Shown in pieces: positions 3,350 through 61,501 of a stretch of DNA of 64,000 bases. This DNA is from a virus. The notes under the pieces were generated by a model, which saw only the letters and a list, made by a program, of their open reading frames with translations, had not been told where the DNA came from and did no database searches. The translations under genes were made by a program, and so were the position numbers. How positions within the stretch are numbered: position 1 is the first letter of the stretch; the number at the start of each line of letters is the position of its first letter. The stretch is taken from positions 36,237-100,236 of IMG/VR virus record IMGVR_UViG_3300002026_000004; one strand, written 5' to 3'.

Positions 3350-3649
3350 ATGGCTAAATTAAATAAAGACTTACTACCACTATATATAGCTTTAGTATCA
3401 GGATTATTCTCTATTTTATCTACGATAGCAGACAATTTAACTAAAAATGTCAAAATAGAAGTATTAACTAAGTCAGTTCAATTAAAAGCACCAACAATAT
3501 CTAAAGTAATTTATAATAAAAACAATGAAATTATTGCGTTTATTTTAGCTAACCCTAAACCAATAGCCTTTGGCCTAATAAGTCTCCTAGCTATTATAAT
3601 TTATGTAGTAATCAGGCTTAAAAAACGACCATCACGGAAGTCAAAATAA
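3350..3649 (+). CDS. Small 2-TM membrane protein (holin-like candidate)
   Basis: Two hydrophobic segments and a basic C-tail KKRPSRKSK; late motif upstream. Confidence 0.4.
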   Translation: MAKLNKDLLPLYIALVSGLFSILSTIADNLTKNVKIEVLTKSVQLKAPTISKVIYNKNNEIIAFILANPKPIAFGLISLLAIIIYVVIRLKKRPSRKSK

Positions 3650-4305
3650 TGAAAATAACACTAAAAGAAGTTAGTAACCTAAATGATAATTTTTATCGTT
3701 GGTTTGGTAAGTCTAAAGTTGTTGACAAGAATGGAAAACCATTAGTAGTACATCATGGAACAAAAGGTGAGTGGGAAGATACAACAATCTTTATTCCCTC
3801 ATTAAAAAATGATATTGGTTCCCACTTTGGCACAAAAGACCAAGCTAACAAAATTTTAATTCCTTCAGAACCAGAAGAAATTATTGATTTAGATTCTAAG
3901 TATTATAAATATATGAGAATGATGCCCTGTTATTTAAAAATAGAGAACCCTCTTTATTTAGAAGATTTATTGACCTGGGATATGGATTCAATGGGTGATA
4001 CTTTAACAGATTTATATATTATGGATGATATAGAAGTATTCAAATTATCTAAATTATATAGAAGGCACTCCTTTGGAGCAAAGACAAGAACAGAGGAATC
4101 TGATGATATTCTAAGTTTTATTCAAGAAAAAATAATACGTGCGTTAAAGAAAGCTGGATATGATGGAATTATTTATGAGAACCAAACTGAAGGCGTTGGT
4201 GAATCTTTTATGGTTTTTAGACCAAATCAAATTAAGTCTATTTTTAATAAAGGCACTTGGAATCCTAAATCAAGTAAAATTAATGAAAATATAGGGAGTG
4301 TATAA
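3649..4305 (+). CDS. ADP-ribosyltransferase-like protein (ART-PolyVal type)
   Basis: KVVDKNGKPLVVHHGT, GYDGIIY-N--E and FRPNQIKS motifs; N-terminal leader MKITLKE. Confidence 0.7.
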   Translation: MKITLKEVSNLNDNFYRWFGKSKVVDKNGKPLVVHHGTKGEWEDTTIFIPSLKNDIGSHFGTKDQANKILIPSEPEEIIDLDSKYYKYMRMMPCYLKIENPLYLEDLLTWDMDSMGDTLTDLYIMDDIEVFKLSKLYRRHSFGAKTRTEESDDILSFIQEKIIRALKKAGYDGIIYENQTEGVGESFMVFRPNQIKSIFNKGTWNPKSSKINENIGSV

Positions 4306-5360
4306 TGAAGTATAGATTAAAAGAACTTAATAATCTTAATGATAATTTTTATCGTTGGTTTGGTGATAGCAAAGTTGTTGATAATCAAGGAAAACCTATC
4401 GTGGTTTATCACGGTACTTCAGCTAAGTTTAGGGCTTTTAATAAGAAAAAAGCGGCTATGGGTGGGATATTTTGGTTTACAACTAACAAACAAGAAGTTG
4501 AAGATGGTAATGTTGGGGCCGCTGGTCATGGTGTTATATTAGAACTGTATGCTAGAATAATAAATCCTGCTGGTTGGAAAGAATATGAAAAATTAGGATT
4601 AGGACAACTAGTAGATAGAGGATATGATGGAGTTATCTTAGAACATAGTGATGGTTTTATTGGTTTCGTATTTGAACCAAATCAATTAAAATCTATTAAC
4701 AATAAAGGTACGTGGAGTTTGAATTCTAATAAAATTAATGAGATGGCTTATCCAACTCAATTCTCTTTTGAAAAATTATTATCATTAACTTCTTATAAGA
4801 AAAGATTAGATTATGTTCAAAGTCTATTACAAAGAATATCTTCAGGGTCTTCAAGAGTAGTATATAAAGTTGACGATGAGAAAGTATTAAAGATAGCTAG
4901 GAATAAAAAAGGTTTAGCTCAGAATGAAGTTGAATCAGATGAGGAATTTCAATATATGTATCCTAGTTTAGTTGCTAAGGTTTTTGAGAAGGATAAAAAT
5001 AATCTATTCTTAGAAATGGAATTGGCTAGGAAAGTAACACCTACTAAGTTCAAACAAGTATTAGGATTTACTACCGATGATTTAACTAGATTATTAGAGA
5101 ATACTGCCTATAGAGCTTATGGTAATAATAAAACTCCTAGTTATTGGAGTAAAGCAGATGAAGGGTTAGAACACCTTTGGGATAATGAGTTTGTAATGAG
5201 TCTTACTGACTATGCTGTAAACTTTAATATTCCTATTCCTGGGGATTTAGATAGATTATCTTCATATGGTTTAGTTACAAGAGAAGGTCAAGAGTCTATT
5301 GTTTTAATTGATTTTGGATTAACTCAATATGTATATGACACTCACTATGGTAGGAGATAA
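4305..5360 (+). CDS. ART-PolyVal-like domain fused to a protein-kinase-like domain
   Basis: N-half PIVVYHGT, GYDGVIL, FEPNQLKS; C-half GSSRVVY, VLKIA, NEVE, LEMEL, GDL and LIDFG. Confidence 0.7.
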   Translation: MKYRLKELNNLNDNFYRWFGDSKVVDNQGKPIVVYHGTSAKFRAFNKKKAAMGGIFWFTTNKQEVEDGNVGAAGHGVILELYARIINPAGWKEYEKLGLGQLVDRGYDGVILEHSDGFIGFVFEPNQLKSINNKGTWSLNSNKINEMAYPTQFSFEKLLSLTSYKKRLDYVQSLLQRISSGSSRVVYKVDDEKVLKIARNKKGLAQNEVESDEEFQYMYPSLVAKVFEKDKNNLFLEMELARKVTPTKFKQVLGFTTDDLTRLLENTAYRAYGNNKTPSYWSKADEGLEHLWDNEFVMSLTDYAVNFNIPIPGDLDRLSSYGLVTREGQESIVLIDFGLTQYVYDTHYGRR

Positions 5361-5363
5361 TTA

Positions 5364-5879
5364 ATGCAATTTTGGCATGGTGGCAATTTAGATGACTACA
5401 AAGATTTCCCTACTCAGAGTAAAGGTAGATATGAATATGGACCAGGATTATATTTAACTACTCATTATGATACAGCAAAAAAGTATTCTAAAGGCAGTAG
5501 AAAATTATACTTAATTGATGTAGAAGTTGGTATTGATGCTACTAAATCTTTTATTGATAATAATAGTGCTTTTGAGTTCATTAATACTTGGTGTATAAAA
5601 TCTAAAATAAAAGAAATAGGATATAGCTTAAACAAATATATTAAAAGTAATAAAATACCTGCTAATATATTCATAAATGTAATTCTTAATACTAATGCAA
5701 TTCCATCTAAGTACACTAATAAACTTAGAGAGTTTTTAGTTAACAATAATATAGATTATGAAGTAGTTAAAAATGCCTTTGGTTGGAATGAAACTATGTT
5801 AGTTCTCTATAACATGAAGAAGATTAAGAGAATAAAGCAGATTAAATCTACTGATAAAATAGAAAAATATGACTTATAA
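5364..5879 (+). CDS. ART-fold (H-Y-E type) protein
   Basis: WHGG, YGPGLYLT and AKKYS motifs. Confidence 0.55.
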   Translation: MQFWHGGNLDDYKDFPTQSKGRYEYGPGLYLTTHYDTAKKYSKGSRKLYLIDVEVGIDATKSFIDNNSAFEFINTWCIKSKIKEIGYSLNKYIKSNKIPANIFINVILNTNAIPSKYTNKLREFLVNNNIDYEVVKNAFGWNETMLVLYNMKKIKRIKQIKSTDKIEKYDL

Positions 5880-5933: not shown

Positions 5934-6248
5934 ATGAAGAAAATAACAGTTAGATTAGCGGAAATGGATGTTAATTCCAGTATTAAGGCTATGGACCCTA
6001 CCGGAAAATATTCAAAGTGGATTATTAAAATGCTTAATAGTGATAAGGAAGAGGCTAAATGGGCATTAGGAAATGTTCCTAGAATGAAGAAGGCTTTTGC
6101 TTTACATTCAGCTATCGTTAATGCTGGTGGATTTGAAAAGGGTGATTGGCCTAATAGGGATGATATTAACTCCTTTGACTCTATTTTTGATTTTGAAGGA
6201 TATATGGGTGACTATGGTCCTAATTACGTTCGAAAATATAATTTATAA
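5934..6248 (+). CDS. Short 'DPT' family paralog (N-terminal domain only)
   Basis: DPTGKYSKWII and DINSF match the N-domain of 6284, 21660 and 59990. Confidence 0.65.
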   Translation: MKKITVRLAEMDVNSSIKAMDPTGKYSKWIIKMLNSDKEEAKWALGNVPRMKKAFALHSAIVNAGGFEKGDWPNRDDINSFDSIFDFEGYMGDYGPNYVRKYNL

Positions 6249-6283: not shown

Positions 6284-7687
6284 TTATAATCCGTAAGGTA
6301 AATCTTGTTGCTTATCTTTTTTTCTTTGGAATTCTGTTGAAGCAGGATTATCAGCACTAGAGTAATTATACTCTAATTGATAATAAATAGTATAGGTTGT
6401 TTCCCCCATAGATATTTCTACTTCTTCATAAGAGTCAATATAATTATATCCATAACCACTATCAGTTTCTACTTTATGTCTGAACTCAAAATTGTCCCTA
6501 AACATATCTTGGAATACATCATCTGAGCGTAGTCCTTCTTGATTACAAATTAAATAATCATATTTTACGTCTTTACCTAAAAGGTCAGTAACAGCATGAG
6601 TTAGTTCATAAGTATCATAACTATCGCTTCTTTCTGCTTGATGCCATTTATTATTAGCATTATTAATAGCATCATCTGGCATTACATCACTACGCATTTC
6701 TACATAAATACCAATACCGTTTTCTACACTAAATCCTTCTAAACCATATATATCTTCAATTTCTGAATAGTATTCTTGACCTTTACCTATTTTATAAACT
6801 TTAAAAGTTGAGTAAGTAGTTTCATCACCACTATCTTCTTCCCCATAATCTTCACCAGAATAGGAATATAAGGATGCTGATACTGAACCATTTAAAACAC
6901 CATCATTATCAATTTCACCATAATAGCTATTCATTATCTCATATGTTTTTTTATCACCAGCAAATCCACCAGCGTCTTCAATTTTTTCTTTTAAATCTGA
7001 AACAATTTCATCAGGGATATCTCTAAAGAAAGTATCATCAATATCTTCAACAGTATCATCAGAAACATCTCTACATTCTACTTCAGATAATGAACGAGAA
7101 TTACCATTAGGGATATATAATTGATATGCCTCATTAGCAAATTCACCATTTTTAAAGAATCTATGAATATATAAAGTTCCCTGTTCTGAATATGATTCAT
7201 AATGTCCTGAATATGTTTTAGAAGTAGTACACCAATGAGTATTAGCACCATACTTACAAGAAGCTTGGTATGATAATGGTATTAATAATAAATTATTTTC
7301 ATCCTTATATAGGATTTTTATATTTTTATCAGCTTTCTTTTCTATCTCTTTATCAACTAAATCCTGTTTAAATCTTCTGTGATTTTGTTCCATGAACTCC
7401 ATAAAAGTAGTATATATTTTAAACTTATTTATATCTGTCCATGTGCTATTAATGATATTACTTTTCTTAAACTTATCATACTCACCTAAATAGAATTTAA
7501 GATTAATACCTTCTGATTCTAAATACTCTCTATTTTGTTCAGGGTTTTTTAGATATTTATCAACTAACCAGCGTGAATATAATTTAGTTGGAGTAGGGTC
7601 TAAAGAAAGTAGATATTCAAAAGTAGGTTCATCAATTTTATCTTTGTAAAAGTTATAGTTTATAGCTTCTAGTATACGAATATTCAT
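6284..7687 (-). CDS. 'DPT/WC' family protein, putative virion-internal
   Basis: DPTPTKLYSRW, ASCKYGANTHWC, acidic C-terminal region; leader MNIRILE. Confidence 0.65.
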   Translation of the reverse strand: MNIRILEAINYNFYKDKIDEPTFEYLLSLDPTPTKLYSRWLVDKYLKNPEQNREYLESEGINLKFYLGEYDKFKKSNIINSTWTDINKFKIYTTFMEFMEQNHRRFKQDLVDKEIEKKADKNIKILYKDENNLLLIPLSYQASCKYGANTHWCTTSKTYSGHYESYSEQGTLYIHRFFKNGEFANEAYQLYIPNGNSRSLSEVECRDVSDDTVEDIDDTFFRDIPDEIVSDLKEKIEDAGGFAGDKKTYEIMNSYYGEIDNDGVLNGSVSASLYSYSGEDYGEEDSGDETTYSTFKVYKIGKGQEYYSEIEDIYGLEGFSVENGIGIYVEMRSDVMPDDAINNANNKWHQAERSDSYDTYELTHAVTDLLGKDVKYDYLICNQEGLRSDDVFQDMFRDNFEFRHKVETDSGYGYNYIDSYEEVEISMGETTYTIYYQLEYNYSSADNPASTEFQRKKDKQQDLPYGL

Positions 7688-12963: not shown

Positions 12964-13617
12964 CTAAACGAAACTCTTTAAACCTTGAATTATTCTATTT
13001 TGGTTATTCTGAGAAGCCCAAACTGTGTTAATCCATACGAAATTAGTATCAATGAATCCAACCTCTTCATTCTCAGAAATAGCATAAAACTGTATAGGTT
13101 TTATTAACTTTAAGTTCTTCTCCCTAATTAATGTTCTTACATACTGAGTTACCTTAGTTTCAGATTCTTCTTTTCCATTATAAAAATAAGAATATCCATA
13201 AGCTTTATCCATATAATATATAATTTGATTAAAAAATTTATCTTGAGGATTATACTCGCGGTGTTTATTTGGATAGAACCTTTGATTCTTTGGAAACGAT
13301 GGGAGTAGTGTAACATTCTTCATCTTTGCTATATTATACAAACGCCAATAACGTGGCTTTCTAGCGTTATTAGTTATTTCTGTACCAAAGTTCTTATTAC
13401 GAGAATAAGAGTATTTGTTTAATAAATATCCTCTAAAATAAATGCCCTTCTTACCTGAAGGCCATTGTTTAACACCTAGAACAACAGGTTGAACAATACG
13501 GGGGTGTTCAGGAGATTCTGCATCTGGAAAGAAAGGAGACTTATTTGAAGAGTAATTAAATTGAATTGGGCAATTTAGAGAGATTGCCTGTTTGAATAAT
13601 TTTTCATACTGTGCCAT
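12964..13617 (-). CDS. WYL-like domain protein (leaderless late gene)
   Basis: IQFNY, RIVQPVVLG and WRLYNIAKM; ATG 3 nt after ACTAATTA. Confidence 0.55.
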   Translation of the reverse strand: MAQYEKLFKQAISLNCPIQFNYSSNKSPFFPDAESPEHPRIVQPVVLGVKQWPSGKKGIYFRGYLLNKYSYSRNKNFGTEITNNARKPRYWRLYNIAKMKNVTLLPSFPKNQRFYPNKHREYNPQDKFFNQIIYYMDKAYGYSYFYNGKEESETKVTQYVRTLIREKNLKLIKPIQFYAISENEEVGFIDTNFVWINTVWASQNNQNRIIQGLKSFV

Positions 13618-13648
13618 GTATAATTAGTTATATTATAACTAATACCTA

Positions 13649-15508: not shown

Positions 15509-15946
15509 CTAATATTTCTTTGATTTATTAAATACATCCTGACGAGAACCTTGTTGTCCTAATTTAGCAATACTTTTATCAACATTTTCTGTAGGAACAA
15601 CATTTTTTACTATATGAGTTAATATCGTTAATAAATCTTTATCTGCATTTAAATAGTATTCTACAGCTTCATTATTCGTTTTAAACCCCTTAGTTCTTTT
15701 AACTTGAAGGATATTAGATTTTAGTGCATCTGAAAGTAAGCCTTTTTGTATAATCAATCTAAATAATTCTAATGGTGTATCTAAAATAATTTCATCACCA
15801 GAATCTGCATCATAAAAATCTGTTGACATTATTTTGTCTAAGTTTTGAGCATACATTTTTCTATTAGGGATTACTAACTTAACCAATTGCTGTAGTGATA
15901 CTTTTTCTTTTAATCTATTTTCCAATAATGTTACTTTAATTTTCAT
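15509..15946 (-). CDS. Hypothetical protein with LxE leader
   Basis: MKIKVTLLE; SD AAGGAG. Confidence 0.6.
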   Translation of the reverse strand: MKIKVTLLENRLKEKVSLQQLVKLVIPNRKMYAQNLDKIMSTDFYDADSGDEIILDTPLELFRLIIQKGLLSDALKSNILQVKRTKGFKTNNEAVEYYLNADKDLLTILTHIVKNVVPTENVDKSIAKLGQQGSRQDVFNKSKKY

Positions 15947-16022: not shown

Positions 16023-16250
16023 TTATAGTCCAGCGTCTAATAGCTTTTTATAATAATCAGGAACTTCTCGTAAATGGTCCCTTGCTACCCATTCATATAC
16101 TAAATCTTCATCAGGAAATTCTGAGTGTTCTTCATACCAGTCTCGTATTTTTTGATACATAGTTCTGTGTTCTTTTTCTACAGAAATTCCTGTTTTCAAT
16201 TGTCCAGCATCAATGGGGTCAGTTTCATATAATCTAAGTTTGTAGTTCAT
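16023..16250 (-). CDS. DUF5661-like protein (leaderless late gene)
   Basis: QLKTGISVEKEH...ARDHLREVPDYY; leader MNYKLRLYE. Confidence 0.7.
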   Translation of the reverse strand: MNYKLRLYETDPIDAGQLKTGISVEKEHRTMYQKIRDWYEEHSEFPDEDLVYEWVARDHLREVPDYYKKLLDAGL

Positions 16251-16261
16251 ATTAAATTAGT

Positions 16262-33985: not shown

Positions 33986-34490
33986 GACTTTAGACTCTAA
34001 TATCCCTTATTCTATTCATAGAAGTGGTGGGATTATCTACGCTTATTTTAGAATTAAGGATAAGGATTATTTGTTTCCTTTCATTAGTCATAACTCTAAT
34101 CTTGTTAATTATGTTATTAGTAATCATGCGAATATTGATGCTATTGCTAATACTAGTGGGTTTGAAATATCCTTTGGTTTAGTTAAAACACCTATTAGAG
34201 ATATTGAGAATATTGATGTAAAACAACTAATAATGAGTGGAAATTTAACAGATATCACTACAGGGACAGGAGATGCTTTTTTAGTTTTTGGAACTGTAGT
34301 AAAAATAGCTATAGAGTTTATTACTAAGTTTAATCCTAATATCCTAATTATGGGAGCTAAACCTGAAAGGCAAGCTATTTATTCTACCTTTATTTCAAGA
34401 TTAGAAAAAAAGTTTCCTCAATATAAAGTTATTAAGAGTGCAGAGATATTTATAATCTATAAGGATGGAGCTATTACTCTTAATAGTTAA
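33975..34490 (+). CDS. Hypothetical protein with LNE leader
   Basis: MLNE; TGTGDAFLVFGTV...RQAIY, a recurrent phage motif of unknown function. Confidence 0.55.
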   Translation: MLNETLDSNIPYSIHRSGGIIYAYFRIKDKDYLFPFISHNSNLVNYVISNHANIDAIANTSGFEISFGLVKTPIRDIENIDVKQLIMSGNLTDITTGTGDAFLVFGTVVKIAIEFITKFNPNILIMGAKPERQAIYSTFISRLEKKFPQYKVIKSAEIFIIYKDGAITLNS

Positions 34491-34544: not shown

Positions 34545-36155
34545 ATGATAAAACTTGTTGAGACATTTAGTGTGACTAAAAATACATCTCAAGAACTTCC
34601 TTTAACTGAAGGTACTATTACTGAAAAAGACACAGGGAAGCTTCTACAAACTAAAAAGAAATTTAGAGTTGACATTTCTCGGTTTACTAAAAACTTAAAT
34701 GAGAGAGTTTATCCAAAACCATTATGGGAAAAGGTTATTAATGACCAAAAACAAATTTGGGAAGGTTCTTTTGCACTAGCAGACCATCCTGAGAATGAAG
34801 GGTCATTTAAGGATGTTATGGGTGTTTGGTCAAACCTTCATATTAATGAAAAAACAGATACAGTTAAAGCTGATATTACATTCGTTGGACCTTATGGTGC
34901 TAAAGCATTAGAAATACTAGAAGCTGGTGGAAAAATTGGCTTTAGCTCATCAGGATTTGGTGATTTAAAAGAAGATGGAATGACTGTAGACGAAAATACT
35001 TATCAAATTGAAAGAATTGCAGACTGTGTATTAAATCCTTCTCAACAAGTATTTGGAACTATCCAAGATGCTATTGAAGAAAACACAGATAAAAAAACCG
35101 AAAATGTTCTAAAGGAGCAAAAACCTATGGCTACAAATAAGTACTCTAAATTAGAGGAAAGAAAGTTTAAAGAAATGATTACTAGTGATATAGCTTCTAT
35201 TCATTCTAGTTCTAAACCTCTTGAAGAAAAAATTAAAGACCTTACTGACTTATTAGGGTATTTTGATGAATCTTCTCCAAAAGATTTAAAAGAATCTGTT
35301 GAAGTTGAAATTGTCAATCTTAATAAAGAAGTATTTGAAGCAACAAAGGTTGTTTCAGAATTAAAAGAAACATTTGGTACAGCTTCCCCAACTGAGTTTA
35401 AGGAAGGACTATCTAAGTTAGCTATTAATTCTTCTTTATATGAAAGACAAGCTGAGGATTGGAAAAAGTTAGCAGAATCCTTACAGACCAAAATTGTTGA
35501 AATGACAAAAACAATTGAAGAGCTTCCTACTCAGGAGTCTTTTGATGAAGTTACTGCTCAGAATAAGAAATATAAAGAATTCTATTCTAAGAAAGTTAAT
35601 GATTTAAAAGGCATAATTAATAAAAAAGAATCAAACTTAGATGAAAATGCTATAATCTATAAGCAAATGATTAAAGAATTAAACTTATCAAAGAAAGATA
35701 ATGCTAAATTAAAATTAGAATTAACTTCTGTTAAGAAGGATATTAGTACTATTATTTCTGAGAATAAAACTTTAAAAGAGTATGCTAATACTATCAAAAC
35801 TAAATATGAAAACAAGATTGAAGAATTAACAGCATTACCTTTAGTAAAGCCAAGACAAACTCGTTCAGAGATGTTTGAAGGTTTTAATGAATCAAAAGAA
35901 ATTACTTCATATTACAATGATTTAGTAAAGCAATACGGTGATAAAATCACTCCATATAAAGAAAGAATCTTAGGATGTAAATCCTTATTTGAAGCTATGA
36001 GAATTCATACTACTGCTTTAGTTGAAATGTCAGAATCAGTTAGACCAGCTATTACTAATGATTATAATGAAAGAAAAGCTTTTACTGAAGCTTCAACAGG
36101 ATTTAAAATTGCTAGAGATACTACTAAACTAAAAATGCCAAAAGGTTGGGACTAA
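34545..36155 (+). CDS. Prohead protease (gp21-like) fused to a coiled-coil scaffold
   Basis: NLNERVYP, LADHP, IGFSSSGFG and ADCVLNPS, then about 350 aa of coiled coil. Confidence 0.85.
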   Translation: MIKLVETFSVTKNTSQELPLTEGTITEKDTGKLLQTKKKFRVDISRFTKNLNERVYPKPLWEKVINDQKQIWEGSFALADHPENEGSFKDVMGVWSNLHINEKTDTVKADITFVGPYGAKALEILEAGGKIGFSSSGFGDLKEDGMTVDENTYQIERIADCVLNPSQQVFGTIQDAIEENTDKKTENVLKEQKPMATNKYSKLEERKFKEMITSDIASIHSSSKPLEEKIKDLTDLLGYFDESSPKDLKESVEVEIVNLNKEVFEATKVVSELKETFGTASPTEFKEGLSKLAINSSLYERQAEDWKKLAESLQTKIVEMTKTIEELPTQESFDEVTAQNKKYKEFYSKKVNDLKGIINKKESNLDENAIIYKQMIKELNLSKKDNAKLKLELTSVKKDISTIISENKTLKEYANTIKTKYENKIEELTALPLVKPRQTRSEMFEGFNESKEITSYYNDLVKQYGDKITPYKERILGCKSLFEAMRIHTTALVEMSESVRPAITNDYNERKAFTEASTGFKIARDTTKLKMPKGWD

Positions 36156-36850
36156 TGAAACAATTTAAGAAACCACTTCATGAAGGTAAATTAATTCAAA
36201 GAATGATTCTAAATGAGATGGATTATTATGTTCCTGATATGCCTGACGAAACAATGTTAGGAGATGAGTTTGATTCAGACGAAGCTCTTGACCATGATTA
36301 TCCTTCTAACGAGTATGATGATTTAGCTTATGATAATCCTATTGATGATGAAATGGATTACGAAGATTATAATCCTAATATGGACCAGGGTTTTGAAGCT
36401 AGTATCGATATTGCTGATGATACTGAAGAAGAGTTTTATGATGAAATGTCTCCTGATTTCTTCCCTGAATCTAAGAAAAGGGTACGTGAAGGTCATGGAG
36501 ATACTGATAATGACCCGACTACTATGGGTAGCATGGGTGGTGGTGATGACCATGCTGGTGAAGCTCGTTGCCCTACTTGTAATAAAATGTTGTTAGGAAA
36601 ATTCCACCCAGGACAATCTGACCGTACATGGTATTGTCCAAATTGTAATAAGAAAAGTTACTCTGCTTGGCCCAATTGGGGAAAAAATTCATATACATCA
36701 CAGCCATATTATGTAATTGAAAAAGGCAGAGACTCTTATGATGTTTATACTAAAGGCCCTGGTGGAGATAAACAGGATTTTGTAAAATCTTTCAAAACTC
36801 AAATGACTGCTGAGTTTTGGATAGATAAGCAATACTCCCAGAGAACCTAA
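36155..36850 (+). CDS. Acidic Zn-ribbon head-associated protein
   Basis: D/E-rich N-half, CPTC...CPNC; LHE and LNE sites. Confidence 0.55.
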   Translation: MKQFKKPLHEGKLIQRMILNEMDYYVPDMPDETMLGDEFDSDEALDHDYPSNEYDDLAYDNPIDDEMDYEDYNPNMDQGFEASIDIADDTEEEFYDEMSPDFFPESKKRVREGHGDTDNDPTTMGSMGGGDDHAGEARCPTCNKMLLGKFHPGQSDRTWYCPNCNKKSYSAWPNWGKNSYTSQPYYVIEKGRDSYDVYTKGPGGDKQDFVKSFKTQMTAEFWIDKQYSQRT

Positions 36851-36869: not shown

Positions 36870-37304
36870 ATGCCTATATCATTACCATTTGCGGGTGAAA
36901 AAGACCCAATAAAAAAAGTTCAATCTGCTTACTCAGCTATTAGTGAATCTGATATCGATGCTATTTTCGTTAATGAAAATAAGAAGAAAGATATTACTAG
37001 AGATTATGTAGAAATGATTATAGAAGACTTCGCATTATTAACACAGAACCAAGCTCTATATAATAAATTCCTACAGATTGATACTAAATTAGAAAAATCA
37101 TTAAGAGAATACCAAGCAGAAGTAAAAGGGTTATTAAACTCAATAGTTGGATTATCTGCACCTATGCAAAATACTGGTGTAGAACAAATGAATCAACCTG
37201 TTACTATGCCTCAGATGCCTCAAGCACAACCAATGGTAGCTACCCCTACTGAAGCTACTCCTCAACCTAAAGTGGAGACTCCTCAAAACATAGGAGTTGA
37301 ATAA
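36870..37304 (+). CDS. Hypothetical protein in the head cluster
   Basis: SD AAGGA; P/Q-rich tail. Confidence 0.6.
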   Translation: MPISLPFAGEKDPIKKVQSAYSAISESDIDAIFVNENKKKDITRDYVEMIIEDFALLTQNQALYNKFLQIDTKLEKSLREYQAEVKGLLNSIVGLSAPMQNTGVEQMNQPVTMPQMPQAQPMVATPTEATPQPKVETPQNIGVE

Positions 37305-37474
37305 TGAAAAAACTTAATGAATCAGAATTAACACAATTTCTATCTGGTGAAGTTAGAAAAGCTATTCAATTAAAAAGGGATGCAGAGAGAACAAAAAGTC
37401 GTGATGACGTTATGTATGCTAATGGATATTATGATGGTATTTACGGTGCGTTACAAAGGTCGATGAAAATATAA
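37304..37474 (+). CDS. 56-aa protein with MKKLNE leader (absent from the ORF track)
   Basis: SD AGGAG; start coupled to the upstream stop. Confidence 0.6.
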   Translation: MKKLNESELTQFLSGEVRKAIQLKRDAERTKSRDDVMYANGYYDGIYGALQRSMKI

Positions 37475-37671: not shown

Positions 37672-39114
37672 ATGAGTATTAGAACTAAAATGTCAGAAGA
37701 TCGCTTTCAAATGCCTGAAGCTGACAAGTACGCAATGGACGAGCGGAAAGCTCGTGGTTATAAGTTAATTGAAAAATGGTCAAACGTTCCTGAAATTGGT
37801 TCAGGTTTACGTGCTATGGATGAAAGACGCGCTGTTAATTTAGCAATTTTACTAGAACAACAGACTCGCCATCTTTCCCGCATGTCAGAAACTCAGTATT
37901 CTTCAGCATTTGCCGCAACTCCTGAGAACATGATTCGTCTAGTTCGGTTAGCTTATCCTAACTCAATTAGAGACAAGTTATTTACAGACTTTGCTATGGA
38001 AACTGCTAAGGATTCTATTAAGTACATCAAACCTGTTTATGTAAATAAAGCTGGTATTACTCGTACTTACGGTTCAGACTTCTCTTCAGGTGCTGTTACT
38101 TATGAATCAACTGAAGAAAGATATCCTACTGAAATGGCTAACGGTGTTGTAATTGCATCAACTTCAGTAACATTCTCTGCTAATGAATTCGCTTTCGGTT
38201 ATATTCCTGGTTATGCAATCTTCGAGGATGCTTCTGGTAACGTAGTTGCTATGGAAAATAGAAACTTATCAATCTCAGTAGCTTCTGGATATACCATCAC
38301 TTTCAGCTATAACGCTGGTGTTTACACTCTTGGTGGTGCTGATGCAGGAGTTATCGCTCGTGCTTATGGTAGATACAATTCTGAAGGTGACTTAACTGGA
38401 ACTAGCTTAGGTGAAGTTGAATTAGTCATGACAGACTACCAGTTCAAGGTTCGTGAATTAACATTAGGCGTAAGCTGGACTGCTTTATCTGAAATCGTTT
38501 TAGATTCAACTGTCGGTGTTTCTACAGAGGAAACTCTAATGGATGCCGCTGGTCAGGAAATCAAGAAAGCCCTAGACTTCCGCGCTGTTAAGATTGGATA
38601 TGCCGCCGCAAAGACAAATGGTTTAACCCCCATTACCTTCGATGCAGAGGCTGGTGCTGGTACTGATGACAGCTACGTTCACACCGCTCAGACAATTACA
38701 CAAGCGATTGAAAGAGTTGGAGACGTTTTATACGATGACATCAATCGTGGTGGAGTTAGTAGAATCGTTGGTGGACCAAAAGCAGTTACCTATCTCCGCT
38801 TAAATGCTGGATTTACTACAAAAGGTGCTCAACCTCGTATTGGTGGTTACCAAGTCGGTGAACTTCATGGTATCCCTGTATTCAAGGTTCCTTCAGCAAT
38901 CGTTCCTGAGAATGAATTACTTTGCGTTTGGAAGAACGAGAATAACGATGCAGACGTTTTCGTAGCATTCGGTACTTTAGTTCCTTTCTGGTCAACTGGT
39001 TCATTACAGAGAAAGAATTTCTACAAAGAAGCTGGATTAGCAAGCTTTGGTGATTACCAAGTTCTTAATCCAAAATATGCTAACAGACTAATTATTAGCA
39101 ACATCCGTGGTTAA
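37672..39114 (+). CDS. Major capsid protein (T4 gp23-like)
   Basis: LIEKW, LAILLEQQ, IRLVRLAYP, RELTLGVSWT and EIKKALD; late promoter and terminator. Confidence 0.9.
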   Translation: MSIRTKMSEDRFQMPEADKYAMDERKARGYKLIEKWSNVPEIGSGLRAMDERRAVNLAILLEQQTRHLSRMSETQYSSAFAATPENMIRLVRLAYPNSIRDKLFTDFAMETAKDSIKYIKPVYVNKAGITRTYGSDFSSGAVTYESTEERYPTEMANGVVIASTSVTFSANEFAFGYIPGYAIFEDASGNVVAMENRNLSISVASGYTITFSYNAGVYTLGGADAGVIARAYGRYNSEGDLTGTSLGEVELVMTDYQFKVRELTLGVSWTALSEIVLDSTVGVSTEETLMDAAGQEIKKALDFRAVKIGYAAAKTNGLTPITFDAEAGAGTDDSYVHTAQTITQAIERVGDVLYDDINRGGVSRIVGGPKAVTYLRLNAGFTTKGAQPRIGGYQVGELHGIPVFKVPSAIVPENELLCVWKNENNDADVFVAFGTLVPFWSTGSLQRKNFYKEAGLASFGDYQVLNPKYANRLIISNIRG

Positions 39115-39849: not shown

Positions 39850-40311
39850 ATGAAGTATTTACTAAGATTAGTAGAAGATAATGATGACGACTATGGTGAC
39901 GACTATGGTGACGACCAAGATGAACCTGTAATGTCAATAAATGATATAAAGAGTAGGATATCTTGGTTAGCTAAAATAGCACAAAAAGTATATGATGATT
40001 GGGATGAGGATGATAAAGATACTTATGCTGGTGGTGGTATCTGTCATTTAATCGCTGATGAGTTTTCTAGTTATCTTAATTTTCATGGTATTGATACGAG
40101 AACAGTATCCTCTTCACATGAGCAACATGTATATTGTGTTAGTGTAGTTAAAGAGGGTGTTTATACTGTTGATATCCATTGGTCTTATTATGAGTCTGGT
40201 GGTGGGTTTAGTTGGAAAAAAATACCTAATGTTGTATTTGATGGTAATGAAATAAACTTCTATAGGCTATCTACAGATTACCATGATTTTGATGAATATA
40301 CTGAAGACTAA
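39850..40311 (+). CDS. Cys-His-Asp (papain/transglutaminase-like) protein, leaderless, LxE leader
   Basis: GGICHLIA...QHVY...VDI; MKYLLRLVE. Confidence 0.55.
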   Translation: MKYLLRLVEDNDDDYGDDYGDDQDEPVMSINDIKSRISWLAKIAQKVYDDWDEDDKDTYAGGGICHLIADEFSSYLNFHGIDTRTVSSSHEQHVYCVSVVKEGVYTVDIHWSYYESGGGFSWKKIPNVVFDGNEINFYRLSTDYHDFDEYTED

Positions 40312-40730
40312 TACCCTCTATCACTATGAGTAATGACATCTTTTATAATTACAGAGTTCTTTCCATATTCAAAACGTAGTGATACATCACCATTAATTCT
40401 AATTAAGTAATGATTCTTTATTTCAAAAGTTATTGAATGATACTTATAACTCTTTGGCAGTAAGTGTTCTTTTTGAGTAGCTAGTACATAAAAAATAAAT
40501 TGAAATTTAGGTATTAAAACTATAGCTTTATTATGTAAATTTTGCAATGTTTTAGAAAAAGAGTTTAAAGTTTGAATCTCTCTAACAACTGGACTAGTAA
40601 CTACAGTAGTAAAGACGCTTCTATCTATAACAAGGAGGTCTTGGAGGTCTTTATTAAACTCTTTAGGAATATCCTTAAAGTTTAATATTCTTTTTATATC
40701 ATCTTTTGTAAATGTTTCTACTATTTGCAT
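40308..40730 (-). CDS. RelE/YafQ-like ribonuclease candidate
   Basis: LPKSYKYHSI...IRINGDVSLRFEY...ITHSD resembles the YafQ/RelE C-half. Confidence 0.5.
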   Translation of the reverse strand: MQIVETFTKDDIKRILNFKDIPKEFNKDLQDLLVIDRSVFTTVVTSPVVREIQTLNSFSKTLQNLHNKAIVLIPKFQFIFYVLATQKEHLLPKSYKYHSITFEIKNHYLIRINGDVSLRFEYGKNSVIIKDVITHSDRGY

Positions 40731-40980: not shown

Positions 40981-41451
40981 TTAGTTATTTTCTAGCCATT
41001 TTTCGTATTGAACTATGTAATTTCGTTGCTCTTTAGTATCAAGTGCTGGACGTTTTTCTGTAACTAATTTATATGCAGATTTAGCTGACTTCAATAATCT
41101 AGTAAATAAACCTACTACTATTAGTCCAGTTCTACCAGTACCACCGTGGCAATGAACTAATACATTATTTTTACTCTTAATATCAATAAGAATATTTTCA
41201 ATAACTGCATTATACTTAGCCATAGATATAGGTAAGCCAAAATCTTGAATAGGGAATCTCTTTATTATTATATTAGCTTTTCTATATATAGTTGCTAAAT
41301 ACTTCTCTATCTTTAAATCAATATCATCTTTCTCTAATAATATATACACAATACTAATATTGTTCTTTATTAAGAAGTCTGGGTCTGTAGTTAAATCATG
41401 AACACCACAGGCGAATAAGGAACCTGACCTAAAACTAAATTGAGATAACAT
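40981..41451 (-). CDS. Dual-specificity protein phosphatase
   Basis: FPIQDFGLP, HCHGGTGRT (HCX5R) and TKEQ. Confidence 0.9.
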   Translation of the reverse strand: MLSQFSFRSGSLFACGVHDLTTDPDFLIKNNISIVYILLEKDDIDLKIEKYLATIYRKANIIIKRFPIQDFGLPISMAKYNAVIENILIDIKSKNNVLVHCHGGTGRTGLIVVGLFTRLLKSAKSAYKLVTEKRPALDTKEQRNYIVQYEKWLENN

Positions 41452-44189
41452 TATTTCTTTCCTTTATTTTTTCTAATAGCACTAAGAACCACTTCAGGAG
41501 TATATGGATTGACAGGCATAGTTACTGATACTATAAAATATTCTATCTTCTTTTGAGTAGTATCAACAGCTATAACTATTTTTTTATTTTCTGGAATATC
41601 TTTAATATTGACAAATAGCATCTTATTAGAAGAACTCCATTGATATTCTTGGTCTAAGAAGAAAGCTCTTTCAATAAAAGTAGTAGCATATTCTTTAGAA
41701 TTAAATTGTAATTCAAAATAAGTTGTTTCTGGTTTTTGAGGAGTTTTTGTAGGAGTAAATCCACCTTTATACTTTCTAATGATATTAAGAACTTGGTCAG
41801 GAGTAGCAGGATTATCAACAGGGTCATCCCAAGGAGCAATAAAGAAATCGATAGTTTTTGGGTCGGTTCCAACCTCTATTAACATTTTTTTATTTCCTGG
41901 TAGTTCTTTGATTTCACTATAAATTTTAGTATCAGTGAACCAGTTATATTGTTTATCTAAATCAAAAGCTTTATAAATAAAATTAGTAGCATCATCTAAA
42001 TTACTAAACTCTAATACATAGAAAGGTTGAATAGTCTCAGATGCTTTAGGAGTTTTAACTTCTCCTAATAATTCTATAAGATGGTCTATCGTTATAACAA
42101 TATTATCTAATTCTGAATCAAACTTAGCATAATACTCGATTTTTTTTGCAGAAACATTAATAGTAAGATAAAAGTTTTCAAACGTATTACTAGTAAAAAA
42201 AGCACCCTGTGTAGGGTAGTTTCCATCACCAGCCCAAGTAAACCCCTTTACCTCTAAAAATTTTAATAAAGATTGCTTATCATTTAAATCTACAAATACA
42301 GCTACTTGAGCATAAGTTGTAGGTTTAGTAGGAGTATTTGATTTGCCCTCTTGTCTACTTAGCAATTTTTTAGCCGTTTCTACTCCATATCCAATACCTA
42401 ATTCAGGAGTATTATTTTGATAATAATATATTTTTTTAATATCTGGTCTTATTAATAAATAGAAATTAACAGCATTATCATCAGAATATATCAATTCTTT
42501 AATAGGTTTACCATTGCCCCATGTATATCCAACATTTAAGTTATCTAAAAATTGTAAAAAATCTTTTTTATATGTTGGGGTTAGATAAACATTAAATGGT
42601 TTAAGATTATCTTTAGATTTTCCAGCTAGTGCTGTTAATGTTGTTCTAGCCTCATCTAAACCAATATGTATATTCCCATATTTTACTGAATCATAAGAGT
42701 ATGCTATAGTTTTCTTATTAGTATCAATAATTAGAAAGAAATTCTTAGATGCATCACTAGCATATACTGAGCTATCTGTAACTTTTGTTCCTGATATCCA
42801 TACATATCCATCATCTAAGTCTTGAATAAATCGTAAAAATGGTTTTTTATCTTCTTTAGTTAAATAAACAGCAAGTGTTTCTGAATCACTAACTTCTTTA
42901 GTATTTTTCTTTTCAAGCTTTTTTAAGTTTTGTAAATGCTTCTTAGCTAATGAGAGTTCTACAGGGTTACCATATTCTTTTTCATCTATTTCATTCATAT
43001 TACTACTATAAACAAGTTCTCTCCCTTTAGTTTTTATAATTATGAATAGTGGATTATAGGAAGGGACATATGAAGAGGGAGAGTGACTAGAGCCTGACCA
43101 TTTATAATTCATATCTAATTTCTCTATAAATTGTAAGAATTCTAATTTTTCATCCCCTGATACTAATACTTGGAAATTCTCACCAATATTTTTCTCTTTA
43201 GTAATAAACGTCATCTTAGGTTCATCAGAACCACCAACTTTTTTACCTTTCTTATCATAAATAGATTGTGAATAATAATTCTTAGATACATAGGCTACAA
43301 CATATTTTAATTGTGGTGATACCTTATCAAAGAATTGAGTAATATTAGTAGCATCTCGTTTCCAATCTAATGCAGTTACAATCCAATTCATTGAGTAGTT
43401 CTTTGTATATAATTTTACTTTAGTAAAAACAGAACCAGTATTGTGCTGTAAGTCATAAGCGTGGTCAATCCAAATAGTTTTCTGCTCTAAAGATTCTGCT
43501 GAAGTTAATTTAACTAAAGCATTAGCTATTTTTCCCCAAGCTTTTCCACCATAAGCAGAGTTCCATTCTAAGTCATTATAAATTTCTCTCATAATAATAC
43601 CTAAATCAGTATTATCTAATTTCATCTCTTTCTGAGTTTGAAGAACTGAAGCGTAATTCATAGCATAAGTAGAATTACGACTACCTTCATTATCATCACC
43701 GGCCAATGCTTTTACTGAACGTCGATTACTAATTTTACTATAAGTAGCATCTTTAGTAAGTTCACCTTGAATACTATTATTATTCTTATAAACGTTATTC
43801 TGATAACGCATAATAAACTTAATTGTTTTTTCTGATATATATTTCTCTGGTACTATATCACCATCAGCATCAGTATATCCATCAGGTTGAATCTCTTTTT
43901 TATTAACTTGATGGGCTTTTTGAACTTGATATGATAAGTTAGATACTGGATCAAAGACATGTCGTAATTCTGCTGATAATGACCATTTTAATGCTCTTAC
44001 CATATGTTTAGTTAAATTATTAACACAATCAGAATACGCTTCATCATAAACGAATTTAAGTGTAGGGTCTTCCTCATGTCTAGGTAGAAATCCTATAATA
44101 AAATAAAAATCATATAATAGTAACTCTGGGTCTTTAGGAGCAGTATAATTAAATGATTCTATACTCTTTTCTTTTAAAATTATTTTCAT
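41451..44189 (-). CDS. 912-aa protein with a conserved N-domain and six ~90-aa tandem repeats
   Basis: AYGGKAWGKIA, WIDHAYDLQHNTG; repeats F[LI]..l...[YF].W; leader MKIILKE. Confidence 0.7.
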   Translation of the reverse strand: MKIILKEKSIESFNYTAPKDPELLLYDFYFIIGFLPRHEEDPTLKFVYDEAYSDCVNNLTKHMVRALKWSLSAELRHVFDPVSNLSYQVQKAHQVNKKEIQPDGYTDADGDIVPEKYISEKTIKFIMRYQNNVYKNNNSIQGELTKDATYSKISNRRSVKALAGDDNEGSRNSTYAMNYASVLQTQKEMKLDNTDLGIIMREIYNDLEWNSAYGGKAWGKIANALVKLTSAESLEQKTIWIDHAYDLQHNTGSVFTKVKLYTKNYSMNWIVTALDWKRDATNITQFFDKVSPQLKYVVAYVSKNYYSQSIYDKKGKKVGGSDEPKMTFITKEKNIGENFQVLVSGDEKLEFLQFIEKLDMNYKWSGSSHSPSSYVPSYNPLFIIIKTKGRELVYSSNMNEIDEKEYGNPVELSLAKKHLQNLKKLEKKNTKEVSDSETLAVYLTKEDKKPFLRFIQDLDDGYVWISGTKVTDSSVYASDASKNFFLIIDTNKKTIAYSYDSVKYGNIHIGLDEARTTLTALAGKSKDNLKPFNVYLTPTYKKDFLQFLDNLNVGYTWGNGKPIKELIYSDDNAVNFYLLIRPDIKKIYYYQNNTPELGIGYGVETAKKLLSRQEGKSNTPTKPTTYAQVAVFVDLNDKQSLLKFLEVKGFTWAGDGNYPTQGAFFTSNTFENFYLTINVSAKKIEYYAKFDSELDNIVITIDHLIELLGEVKTPKASETIQPFYVLEFSNLDDATNFIYKAFDLDKQYNWFTDTKIYSEIKELPGNKKMLIEVGTDPKTIDFFIAPWDDPVDNPATPDQVLNIIRKYKGGFTPTKTPQKPETTYFELQFNSKEYATTFIERAFFLDQEYQWSSSNKMLFVNIKDIPENKKIVIAVDTTQKKIEYFIVSVTMPVNPYTPEVVLSAIRKNKGKK

Positions 44190-45463: not shown

Positions 45464-45856
45464 TCATTGGGCTTGTCCTCTAATAGTATTGATTAAAGAT
45501 GGAAAAGGTATTTGAATAGCCTCATTAAGTTCTCTATTCATATTATTAGCTCCAACAGTATTCATTGAATGAATAATAATTTGGGTATTAACAACATCAG
45601 GATATGTTTCTTTCATCCATTTAATAAATTGATAACCTGTATTAGTTTCTTCAGAATCAACAAAAACTTGATTATCTAAATCATGGTCTAAAAGAATGGA
45701 ATCAAAAGGATAGAACTCCTTAAACTCAAGTTTAGCTACTTCAACATTATCTGACCATATTATTTTAACTTCTTCTTTAGGAAATATTTTTGGTAGATAT
45801 CTCCTAAAGGCGTTAATTCTGATTGGGTCATCTTCTAGTATAAATATCTTTTTCAT
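45464..45856 (-). CDS. Cyclic-phosphate-processing receiver domain protein
   Basis: ILEDD, LDHDL, TGY and IIHSMN-VG. Confidence 0.8.
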   Translation of the reverse strand: MKKIFILEDDPIRINAFRRYLPKIFPKEEVKIIWSDNVEVAKLEFKEFYPFDSILLDHDLDNQVFVDSEETNTGYQFIKWMKETYPDVVNTQIIIHSMNTVGANNMNRELNEAIQIPFPSLINTIRGQAQ

Positions 45857-59976: not shown

Positions 59977-59989
59977 ATAGAGGATACTA

Positions 59990-61501
59990 ATGAAATTACG
60001 ATTATTATATGAAGGTAAAAAACAAGCATTAGCTATACTAAAAGATGAAGAATTAGTAAATAGAATTTTAGCTATTGACCCTACTAAGACTAAGAAATAT
60101 TCAGAATTAATTGCTCGTATTCTAAAACCAAAAATACAAAATTTTTATAAGAGGGGCATAGATTCAGCTACAATGGTATCTACAAATTTAGAATCATTTA
60201 AAACTTTAGTACCATTAATCAAACAAGCTGAATCAGAACACAAGTCTATTGATTTATCTCAAATAAACGATTTATTAGTATTAGAATCTGTTTTAGAAAA
60301 AGCAGTAAATAGAAGTAAAGGTTCTTTAATAGCAACAGGAATTAAAGGATTAACTCGTGGTGATGATTATGAAATAATTTATAATAATCCAATTATTTAT
60401 GCTATTATTCCGTTTAATTTCAAATCTTCTAAACTGTTAGCATCAGAGTATGTTGGTAATTGTAGAGGTAAATGGTGTATAGCTTACGATGGTGATGATG
60501 ATAGTTATTGGAAAACACATACTCAACAAAAAGGACAAGCTCCTGTTTATATGATACCTAAGAATGAGGATGAATATAAATATGCCTATATGTTCCATGA
60601 GGATTCTAATGAGTATGATATTTGGGATGAAGAAGATAACTTAATGACAAATGCTACAAAACCTATTATAACTAATGACTTAGGAATTTCAGAGACTGAT
60701 TTTAATATGATTAGGGATAAAGCATTACAATTAGCTGTAGATAATATTGATAGTTTTGCTAAAGGTGAGCAAGAACCTAGTTATACAAAATTATTTAATA
60801 TTAATTTTGAATTAACTAAATTTAAGTTTAATGGAACTTTAGAAATAACTACTGAAGTATATTACCCTGATGAAGACGATTATGGTGACCCAGAAACTGA
60901 GCAATATGAAGAATGTGAAGGTACTGTTAATTATGGTCCTGATTACTTTACTAATGGAATGGAAGGATTTGCTCTATTAAAATCTATATATGAAGAATAT
61001 AAAGATTTAGAAACTCTTACCGATATTACTGATAATAGTGTAATTATAGATTATGGAACAGATAGTACATTTGGTGCTTTATATGAAGAAATGAGTGGTC
61101 TTCATTATGATGATAGTAACGATAATACTAGTTATCAATATATTATTAAAGTATTAAAAAATAATGATGTTTCTGTATTAGTCATATTATCACAAGAAGA
61201 GAACTCTCCTGATGAGGATGAAAAGGAACCTATGTATAGAGCCTTACGACAAATGTATGGAGAATTAGATTCCTTTAATGGGTATTCTCAAGAGGTAGGA
61301 TATTATACTATTTTCTCCTCAAAGAAAAATACTTCAAATCTTTTAGATGGTGTTAAATCTATTCCTAACCTTTATAGAAAATTAACTTCTGAAGAATGGT
61401 ATCGAGATGATACTGAAGAAGCTAAATATGGACAACAATTTATTAGAACTCCTTTTAAGAAAGATGAAAATAAAAAGAAATATAAATTATTAAGGATATA
61501 A
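59990..61501 (+). CDS. 'DPT/WC' family protein
   Basis: DPTKTKKYS and P.NFKSSK...GKWC; leader MKLRLLYE; late motif at 59968. Confidence 0.65.
   Translation: MKLRLLYEGKKQALAILKDEELVNRILAIDPTKTKKYSELIARILKPKIQNFYKRGIDSATMVSTNLESFKTLVPLIKQAESEHKSIDLSQINDLLVLESVLEKAVNRSKGSLIATGIKGLTRGDDYEIIYNNPIIYAIIPFNFKSSKLLASEYVGNCRGKWCIAYDGDDDSYWKTHTQQKGQAPVYMIPKNEDEYKYAYMFHEDSNEYDIWDEEDNLMTNATKPIITNDLGISETDFNMIRDKALQLAVDNIDSFAKGEQEPSYTKLFNINFELTKFKFNGTLEITTEVYYPDEDDYGDPETEQYEECEGTVNYGPDYFTNGMEGFALLKSIYEEYKDLETLTDITDNSVIIDYGTDSTFGALYEEMSGLHYDDSNDNTSYQYIIKVLKNNDVSVLVILSQEENSPDEDEKEPMYRALRQMYGELDSFNGYSQEVGYYTIFSSKKNTSNLLDGVKSIPNLYRKLTSEEWYRDDTEEAKYGQQFIRTPFKKDENKKKYKLLRI

Follow-up and report, generated by a model that had tools for sequence, protein, structure and literature searches.

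The 64-kb window analysed here (bases 36237-100236 of a single viral contig of 100,236 bp, ~30% GC, IMG/VR record IMGVR_UViG_3300002026_000004) encodes a predicted prohead protease and a set of proteins which begin with a short leader ending in a hydrophobic residue, any residue and glutamate. The source is an uncultured, distantly T4-like, myovirus-like phage of 100 kb, and leaders and protease together most likely represent a wider version of the capsid-targeting and processing scheme of T4. A nucleotide search of a phage collection with the head module gave no match. The closest relatives are four IMG/VR contigs (G001-G004), whose capsid proteins are 66-72% identical. Many small genes of the window have no function assigned by Pfam-type scans. 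Gene order in the head module is portal, protease-scaffold, capsid, as follows (positions are those of the window, and genes are called below by their lower coordinate):

30839-40311, plus strand: head module
31517..33985, plus strand: portal protein, at the start of the module; weak Portal_T4 match (E=4e-5), orthologs 52-58% identical, no leader
33975..34490, plus strand: accessory gene between portal and protease, starts MLNE; weak DUF6934 match, not at this position in relatives
34545..36155, plus strand: predicted prohead protease (N-terminal ~200 residues, T4 gp21 family) with a coiled-coil scaffold-like C-terminal half, 536 residues, starts MIKLVE
36155..36850, plus strand: accessory gene after the protease, starts MKQFKKPLHE; acidic (pI 4.3), no ortholog in relatives
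37304..37474, plus strand: small gene before the capsid gene, 56 residues, starts MKKLNE; GGAG ribosome site upstream
37672..39114, plus strand: major capsid protein (phrog_138, E=1.4e-6), hydrophobic-x-Glu at MSE-9, MPE-16 and MDE-24
39850..40311, plus strand: very acidic protein of 153 residues, encoded downstream of the capsid gene, starts MKYLLRLVE; ATG preceded by ACTAATT at 11 nt

The product of 34545 matches the phrog_207 'head maturation protease' model (E=4e-13, residues 49-340), the same model matched by T4 gp21 at E=8e-76. When a profile of four orthologs was aligned to gp21 by hhalign (144 columns), the NxRxYPK segment matched, and His81, Ser134 and Asp160 fell on His85, Ser140 and Asp168 of gp21. 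Ser134 is embedded in GFSSSG, gp21 Ser140 in GVSSRG, and the His, Ser and Asp residues are invariant in the ortholog alignment (A1). Since the hhalign probability is only 44.5%, the catalytic assignment rests on the motif-level match and on the phrog match. Phmmer-type searches detected no direct homology to T4, CP220, Staph K or Twort DNA, or to the PDB, and profile methods alone link the protein to gp21. Its placement among gp21-family serine proteases of the prohead (MEROPS S77-like) is thus supported at the level of profiles and motifs. The C-terminal 200-odd residues are coiled-coil-like, which suggests that protease and scaffold are fused.

As a proxy of cleavage specificity, [LIM]xE triplets were counted in each protein and compared with shuffles of the same protein. 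The protein encoded by 34545 carries 28 triplets against 10.3 expected (z=6.2, the highest value in the window), and the second-highest density is that of the capsid protein (z=2.4). Applied to the T4 proteome, the same test ranks highest two classical substrates of gp21, namely the gp22 scaffold (z=4.7) and gp21 itself (z=4.1). Orthologs of 34545 rank first in G001 (7.9) and G004 (7.4), as does the gene after the protease in G010 (6.8), an unrelated contig encoding a strong gp21 homolog; nothing comparable was found in Staph K and Twort. Coiled coils may inflate the count, yet the SbcC-like coiled-coil protein of the window is no outlier. A hydrophobic-x-Glu is kept at the N-terminus of the protease in the four orthologs (MIKLVE, MIRLQE, MALQRFVE), and gp21 likewise starts MNEPQLLIE. 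The capsid protein, to which the earlier note had attributed MSE sites, has three conserved sites clustered in its first 24 residues; orthologs keep the Glu and a hydrophobic P3 at or near the same positions, the middle site (16) being the weakest in G002 and G003. The characterised relatives of the protease, T4 gp21, phiKZ gp175 and SPN3US gp245, all recognise a three-residue motif and cleave behind its Glu; T4 Alt is processed at ITE-6 (PMC5694885). The density test, the conserved capsid sites, the N-terminus of the protease itself and the Glu-cutting relatives make it likely that 34545 cuts after Glu in [L/I/M]-x-E.

The 15 N-termini singled out in the earlier note were all found by translation at their start coordinates, six of them on the minus strand (7687, 15946, 16250, 23042, 40730 and 44189), and a GGAG-type ribosome site lies 6-9 nt upstream of most leader-gene starts. 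The leaders are basic/hydrophobic, 4-10 residues long, and conform roughly to M-(K/N)-x(0-5)-(K/R)-L-x-E. Their frequency was assessed with our own gene caller, used in the same way for all genomes and able to recover 53 of 55 annotated T4 starts. The window holds 79 genes, 10 of which were counted as head module and 69 as lying outside it, and four AT-rich phages (T4, Staph K, Twort and CP220; 894 genes for the strict count) served as controls. A loose motif, [LIVM]xE inside residues 2-11, was distinguished from a strict one, having no D/E ahead of the E, Leu at P3, and the E at residues 4-11.

The loose motif occurs in 23 of the 79 genes of the window (29%), against 10.8 expected from internal windows and 13-14 from shuffles, and in 23% of the genes of the whole 100-kb genome. 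It is frequent in all genomes (T4 19%, Staph K 16%, Twort 16%, CP220 22%), and by itself says little; the 51 T4 proteins which match it are mostly not known gp21 substrates or carriers of the T4 capsid-targeting sequence (CTS). The pattern could accordingly be ascribed to chance, paralogy and the N-terminal codon bias of AT-rich genomes (MK..., Leu, Glu), as 16-22% of AT-rich phage N-termini fit the loose motif, two paralog families hold six of the 15 proteins, and residue 2 is K, N or R in about one third of all genes. Such an explanation is very improbable in view of the strict motif, which is found in 13 of 79 genes of the window against 23 of 894 in the controls (2.6%; Fisher P=1.3e-6), in 10 of 75 once paralog families are collapsed (P=9e-5), in 4 of 10 genes of the head module alone (P=1e-4) and, with families collapsed, in 6 of 65 genes outside it (P=0.011), all these P values being optimistic, upper bounds on significance, because the strict definition was fitted after the data had been seen. 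The excess over the four controls is 6-fold, also after families are collapsed. Holding residue 2 fixed in the shuffles, 4.6 cases of the M[KRN] variant are expected and 14 observed, and P3 is Leu in 13 of 22 cases, though of all L, I, V and M in these proteins only about one in three is Leu. A generic N-terminal bias of AT-rich genomes was rejected for the strict motif, since the four controls give only 2-3%. Rejected as well was a DNA cassette, that is a promoter, ribosome site and first codons spread together by recombination, as identity over the 40 nt upstream is 0.31 among leader genes and 0.33 among other genes. In its strict form the observation is confirmed. Strict leaders are absent from the 36-kb tail-fibre part of the same genome, and in the relative G004 an M[KRN]-type strict leader is carried by 7 of 63 genes.

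Two statements of the earlier note have to be toned down. That the proteins are otherwise diverse is an overstatement, six of the 15 falling into two paralog families (3649 and 4305; 5934, 6284, 21660 and 59990). That few replication proteins start in a similar way holds only in part, as four proteins match the loose motif and are regarded as false positives:

23110-30780: replication/recombination genes, including the SMC_N/SbcC-like 24545, a DnaA/IstB-like ATPase (28366) and DnaB (29139)
24545: SMC_N/SbcC-like protein, starts MVITE; Pfam model begins at residue 3-4
29139: DnaB, starts MSVRPVKE; motif inside the known fold or at its very beginning
10212: SSB, apart from the replication block, starts MNSLNSILVE; Pfam model begins at residue 3-4
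45464-45856, minus strand: cREC_REC receiver protein, starts MKKIFILE; Pfam E=5.7e-13

Because the Pfam models start at residue 3-4, the motif is part of the fold in SSB and in the SMC_N protein. In the receiver protein it lies inside a conserved N-terminal FILEDDP segment, common to the ortholog in G003. The latter gene, conserved in G003, is in itself a stand-alone cREC_REC (cyclic-phosphate processing receiver) domain protein.

In the head module, the four accessory genes 33975, 36155, 37304 and 39850 are window-specific insertions among conserved genes. Relatives carry other accessory genes in the same slots, and several of these have similar starts (MALNE in G002; MKKKMVQNIIE in G004; MVLLE, MRIKE and MKTMKTKIKE in G001).

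Outside the head module, the largest group of leader proteins shares a module that we call DPT/WC, after its conserved motifs DPT..KKY..WI and T.WCTA:

5934..6248, plus strand: DPT/WC N-terminal module, short member of 104 residues, starts MKKITVRLAE (alignments A2 and A3; profile match P0046)
6284..7687, minus strand: DPT/WC protein, 467 residues, starts MNIRILE; paralog of 21660 (blastp 1e-18), profile match P0029
21660..23042, minus strand: DPT/WC protein, 460 residues, starts MKLLLVE
59990..61501, plus strand: distant DPT-module protein in the tail-gene block, 503 residues, starts MKLRLLYE; profile match P0030 (4e-16)
from 46350, plus strand: baseplate and tail genes

The similarity of 59990 to 21660 is confined to residues 19-96 (blastp E=0.001). 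DPT/WC is an uncharacterised, widespread phage protein fold: it has no Pfam match, finds only viral hypotheticals in the ESM Atlas, and its best Foldseek hit in the PDB has E 1.0. The profile found no match in T4, CP220, G001 and G010, and a weak one in G003. Searched against 1.84 billion representatives, it retrieved 77 proteins, in ~64 of which the module sits at the very N-terminus of a protein of 440-600 residues. These start with M, 1-8 variable residues and [LI]-x-E, followed by A-[IV]-N-Y..Y-K-D...D-P-T..K-K-Y..W-I. Of 41 anchored members, 33 have L at P3, 6 have I and 2 have F; P2 is free, K/R occupies P4 in 20 and Ala P1' in 36, and 37 have a leader of 4-10 residues. At least 90% of 40 relatives retain the Glu, which is E7 in 21660. 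In the AlphaFold2 model of 21660 (pLDDT 91.8) only residues 1-6 score below 50. As in the model of the ADP-ribosyltransferase (ART) 3649, described below, the leader is a disordered N-terminal add-on, and the fold begins right after the Glu.

A metagenomic member of the family, P0098, starts MKTYKEFINE|A, and T4 IPII and IPIII start MKTYQEFIAE|A; a T4-type capsid-targeting sequence thus sits exactly at the leader position. No relatives of P0098 were found in IMG/VR contigs. The module is also combined with ART-PolyVal in larger proteins. In P0033 and P0056 an ART lies at the N-terminus and the DPT module at about residue 300; P0096, P0066 and P0074 measure ~2000 residues. In G004, a DPT/WC ortholog is adjoined by a class-3 lipase gene with an MKYIYE leader (locus L022:8094-8762, minus strand; Pfam Lipase_3, E=2e-11), a further type of enzyme with such a start.

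Cultured homologs of DPT/WC were found in jumbo phages only. EST35_0205 (gp205) of the Pseudomonas jumbo phage PA5oct is homologous to 21660 and 6284 (27% identity, E=2e-17) and starts MKLFE; it adjoins neck, sheath and other structural genes, and the phage encodes a phrog_207 protease (E=2.6e-60). EST35_0205 is annotated 'structural protein, ESI-MS/MS' in PA5oct virions (PMC7318152). PA5oct is overall not enriched in leaders (loose motif 12%).

Tagged proteins encoded outside the head module might alternatively be virion parts located elsewhere, in tail or baseplate, or cytoplasmic pro-enzymes, the leader being an anchoring or inhibitory propeptide. The position of 59990 in the tail-gene block, behind an ACTAATT of its own (22 nt upstream), would fit, and so would the neighbourhood of the PA5oct homolog and the architecture of DPT/WC proteins, in which a common N-terminal module is joined to varied C-terminal parts, as often in receptor-binding proteins. 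We regard this possibility as improbable, given that the 36-kb tail-fibre region has no strict leaders. Proteases of the gp21 type, moreover, are active only inside proheads, as established for T4. DPT and ART-PolyVal modules, finally, co-occur in giant polyvalent proteins (P0033, P0056, P0096), which are predicted to be packaged in heads (PMC5512222).

A second family without function, named PKDPE-LYDFYF, shows the same arrangement, and three further genes start with comparable leaders:

41451..44189, minus strand: PKDPE-LYDFYF family protein, 912 residues, starts MKIILKE
16023..16250, minus strand: DUF5661 protein, 75 residues (Pfam 1.6e-10), starts MNYKLRLYE; ACTAATT 11 nt before the ATG
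15509..15946, minus strand: orphan basic protein, 145 residues, starts MKIKVTLLE; weak candidate, no orthologs in relatives
40308..40730, minus strand: 140-residue protein, starts MQIVE; weak candidate, YafQ_toxin match over residues 51-137 (E=1.9e-4, 22.1 bits vs a cut-off of 30)

Orthologs of 41451 in G003 and G004 start MRIQE, MNRLKE and MNQLKE. The 57 relatives of the family have the same layout, a variable leader placed ahead of x-I-x-x-F-x-Y..P-K-D-P-E; 39 of them were anchored, with L at P3 in 27, I in 6 and F in 4. Some carry two tandem motifs. The G001 ortholog of 16023, which adjoins the capsid gene, is devoid of the first 14 residues, hence of the leader. A leader-type start, MTRKMHLIYE, was also noticed in a giant protein of 1746 residues matching DUF6267 (E=1e-51) in G001, a 170-kb relative (locus L011:11395-16635, minus strand).

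Two adjacent genes encode ARTs of the ART-PolyVal clade:

3649..4305, plus strand: stand-alone ART-PolyVal ADP-ribosyltransferase, single domain (PF18760, 58.9 bits, cut-off 31.2), starts MKITLKE
4305..5360, plus strand: ART-PolyVal paralog with a C-terminal domain (PF18760, 70 bits, same cut-off), starts MKYRLKE

In the AlphaFold2 model of 3649 (pLDDT 80.6) residues 1-6 score below 50, and the first helix begins at residue 13. The homolog in G002 (locus L002) starts MNVLDNPNFIQWFG, precisely at the point where the leaders MKITLKE and MKYRLKE stop. Of 26 stand-alone ART-PolyVal proteins from metagenomes, some begin directly at LNDNFxxWFG, and most have a variable extension of 5-30 residues rich in [LIV]xE, such as MKRIITNILE, MITKFKIFE or MELRKFIATTIRE. 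Most ART-PolyVal matches in IMG/VR are internal domains of polyvalent proteins of 1300-2200 residues; leaders are found in most of the ~12 stand-alone genes. For polyvalent proteins with ARTs of this clade, packaging into the capsid and injection have been predicted (PMC5512222). The C-terminal domain of 4305, which has a weak likeness to the SteC kinase (E=0.08), is shuffled among relatives: it is fused to the ART here and in G002 (L002:215-1714), and is a separate gene with an MKNIKE start in G004 (L004:12987-13613). The same operon includes a third, weakly ART-PolyVal-like gene (5364-5879, plus strand; 18.4 bits, below the cut-off); it is leaderless, its product starting directly with the catalytic core, MQFWHGG.

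The earlier note had also labelled the putative cargo. The ART label is justified, as both Pfam scores exceed the cut-off. 'Kinase' for the C-terminal domain of 4305, 'Cys-His-Asp' for 39850, where the Transglut_core lead has E=0.06 only, and 'RelE-like' for 40308 are sub-threshold leads.

In the DPT/WC and PKDPE families, hydrophobic residues at P5 and P3, a basic P4, a free P2 and a fixed Glu make up the pattern that might be expected of a protease site bound as an extended strand. The fixed Glu could instead be a capping residue of the fold. The earlier note read the leader as a modular tag which loads effectors into the head for injection, on the model of T4 internal proteins; this is partly supported, as the protease, the add-on nature of the leader and the family-wide conservation of [LI]xE speak for it, whereas the likeness to the T4 sequence is missing. 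Beyond the motif and its enrichment, the protease family with its aligned catalytic residues, the disordered add-on leader and the conservation across families, we infer cleavage specificity, targeting, packaging and injection. With a slight lean in favour, we hold that the short L-x-E leader directs proteins into the core of the prohead, where the gp21-type protease cuts it off, that the cargo set is broader than, and different from, that of T4, and that the pattern recurs in many uncultured large phages.

Several observations weigh against this proposal. The loose motif does not exceed background outside the head module (17 of 69 genes vs 18% in controls, P=0.20); the definition of the strict one followed inspection of the data; and the relatives G002 and G003 show no enrichment. 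The leaders do not resemble the T4 sequence MKTYQEFIAE, being basic/hydrophobic and devoid of internal acidic residues, and some have no more than 4-5 residues. 59990 has tail genes as neighbours. In DPT/WC and PKDPE proteins the Glu directly precedes conserved residues, and may instead have a structural role where the fold begins. The virion annotation of EST35_0205 fits a head or a tail location alike, and in PA5oct (80-186 kb, 106 of 287 kb) the loose motif does not predict detection by mass spectrometry (MS), 10 of 25 proteins being detected against a base rate of ~44%, in an MS list which includes evident non-structural enzymes. Lastly, in a scan of 20 IMG/VR records, a phrog_207 match was found in only one of 10 leader-ART records (G010), the records being fragmentary (4-63% complete), and in G020, which is not a leader-ART record.

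The main alternative is that only proteins of the head module, that is the protease-scaffold, the capsid protein and perhaps the four accessory proteins, are processed, and that elsewhere L-x-E is the first structural residue or a family-specific N-terminal tail. The background level of the loose motif outside the module, where even the strict motif reaches only P=0.011 with families collapsed, is what would be expected; so are the contiguity of the DPT/WC Glu with the conserved A-[IV]-N-Y, the high AlphaFold2 confidence from about residue 7, the same motif found as part of known folds in SSB, SMC_N and receiver-domain proteins, and the negative motif test in PA5oct. It is harder to reconcile with a pattern common to unrelated families, stand-alone ARTs included: a leader that varies, then K/R (P4), L/I (P3), a free position (P2) and E. 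Nor does it readily account for the T4-type sequence which takes the place of the leader in P0098, for homologs which lack the leader and retain the domain, or for the presence of the PA5oct homolog in virions. On balance, restriction of processing to the head module seems to us unlikely.

According to the favoured proposal of a leader-directed loading, 34545, fused to its own scaffold, would mature the head, most likely cutting after Glu in [Leu/Ile/Met]-x-E as gp21 does. It would act chiefly on its own scaffold half and on the N-terminal 9-24 residues of the capsid protein; further substrates may include the four small accessory proteins of the head module and members of the ART-PolyVal, DPT/WC and PKDPE-LYDFYF families. 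The leader would bring each protein into the core of the prohead scaffold, where the protease would trim it; the mature protein would stay in the DNA-filled head, and could leave it with the DNA. The case is strong for the protease among the 15 proteins, and for the capsid protein, which the earlier note had mentioned separately. It is moderate for the four accessory genes, the ARTs 3649 and 4305, the DPT/WC genes 6284, 21660 and 5934, and 41451, and weak for 59990, 16023, 15509 and 40308. Short or orphan cases (MLNE, MQIVE, MKKLNE and 15509) could be due to chance.

Head-carried phage proteins act before any phage gene is expressed, and decide early fights with host defences. To our knowledge, almost nothing is known on which proteins are carried outside T4, P1, N4 and the phiKZ group. 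If the leader is a real loading and processing tag, it would provide a sequence rule to predict head cargo in uncultured T4-like phages, a second delivery route for the modules of polyvalent proteins, and a likely role, as virion cargo, for two large families, DPT/WC and PKDPE-LYDFYF, now devoid of function. A bolder extension, possible though rather doubtful, is that the (K/R)-L-x-E leader is a portable cargo code in wide use among phages with gp21-type proteases, and that effector modules delivered by other phages inside giant polyvalent proteins (ART-PolyVal, DPT/WC, PKDPE and others) are in the present phage split into single genes, each product being loaded by its leader, trimmed and injected. 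Were this true, genome sequences would directly reveal which proteins uncultured large phages inject.

The sequence ACTAATT deserves a separate comment, as most leader genes had been described as lying downstream of this putative late motif. ACTAATT does precede most leader genes or operons; it precedes many non-leader genes as well, as 23110 beside the SbcC-like gene, and a late promoter was consequently rejected as a class discriminator. Genome-wide the sequence is about as frequent as chance predicts (57 copies vs 54 expected). Some 34 copies fall between genes, a short distance ahead of a gene, and most of these lie 11-70 nt from a start. In three genes without a Shine-Dalgarno sequence (12964-13617, 16023-16250 and 39850-40311) the distance from the ATG is exactly 11 nt:

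13618-13628, minus strand: ACTAATT 11 nt before the ATG of 12964
16251-16261, minus strand: ACTAATT 11 nt before the ATG of 16023
39839-39849, plus strand: ACTAATT 11 nt before the ATG of 39850

This arrangement suggests that these three genes may be expressed as leaderless, or near-leaderless, transcripts from a promoter-like ACTAATT element.

Among known systems, T4 is the closest. Its internal proteins are diverse, and the CTS is their sole common feature (PMC3012670). The CTS of IPI-III, Alt, gp67 and gp68, cut by gp21, is likewise a short N-terminal leader ending in [L/I]-x-E (PMC3012670, PMC5694885). In both phages a gp21-family protease gene is placed between the portal gene and the capsid gene, the motif abounds in the scaffold, diverse cargo (candidate cargo here) shares the leader only, and an ADP-ribosyltransferase is included. 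The placement of the accessory genes in the head module mirrors that of gp67 and gp68, located between portal and protease. Differences are equally clear. None of the leaders of the window has a sequence like that of the T4 CTS; the ARTs are of the ART-PolyVal clade, T4 Alt of a different one (ADPrib_exo_Tox); the protease is fused to the scaffold; and the set of candidate cargo is larger and includes proteins of 460-912 residues. In T4 itself, gp61.1, a hypothetical protein of 54 residues (locus L005:18966-19130, minus strand), starts MKTFKEFIKE, very like the CTS of IPII and IPIII.

The S80 proteases of phiKZ, 201phi2-1 and SPN3US have a homologous fold and cut after Glu in a three-residue motif, and in these phages many head-internal proteins (ejection and inner-body proteins) are N-terminally processed, often at several sites (PMC5694885). 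Their sites have a small P3 (S/A/G), and their propeptides are often long; in the phage described here P3 is Leu/Ile as in T4, leaders are very short, and the genome is of 100 kb, not of jumbo size. PA5oct shares a homologous protein starting MKLFE, gp205, and a gp21-family protease encoded in the same phage, and differs in lacking a leader enrichment as a whole. Polyvalent proteins, which are MuF-linked and multi-domain (Iyer et al. 2017), are built of the same modules, ART-PolyVal and DPT/WC being found elsewhere inside multi-domain proteins of 865-2200 residues, and are predicted to serve in early host takeover after co-injection with DNA (PMC5512222). No gp21-type protease was found in four complete genomes encoding a giant polyvalent ART protein. 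In the window, 3649 has one domain, 4305 has two and no MuF-type module, and giant multi-domain proteins are absent. Modules which polyvalent proteins combine are here separate genes, each provided with a short leader in place of a fusion to a head-anchoring domain.

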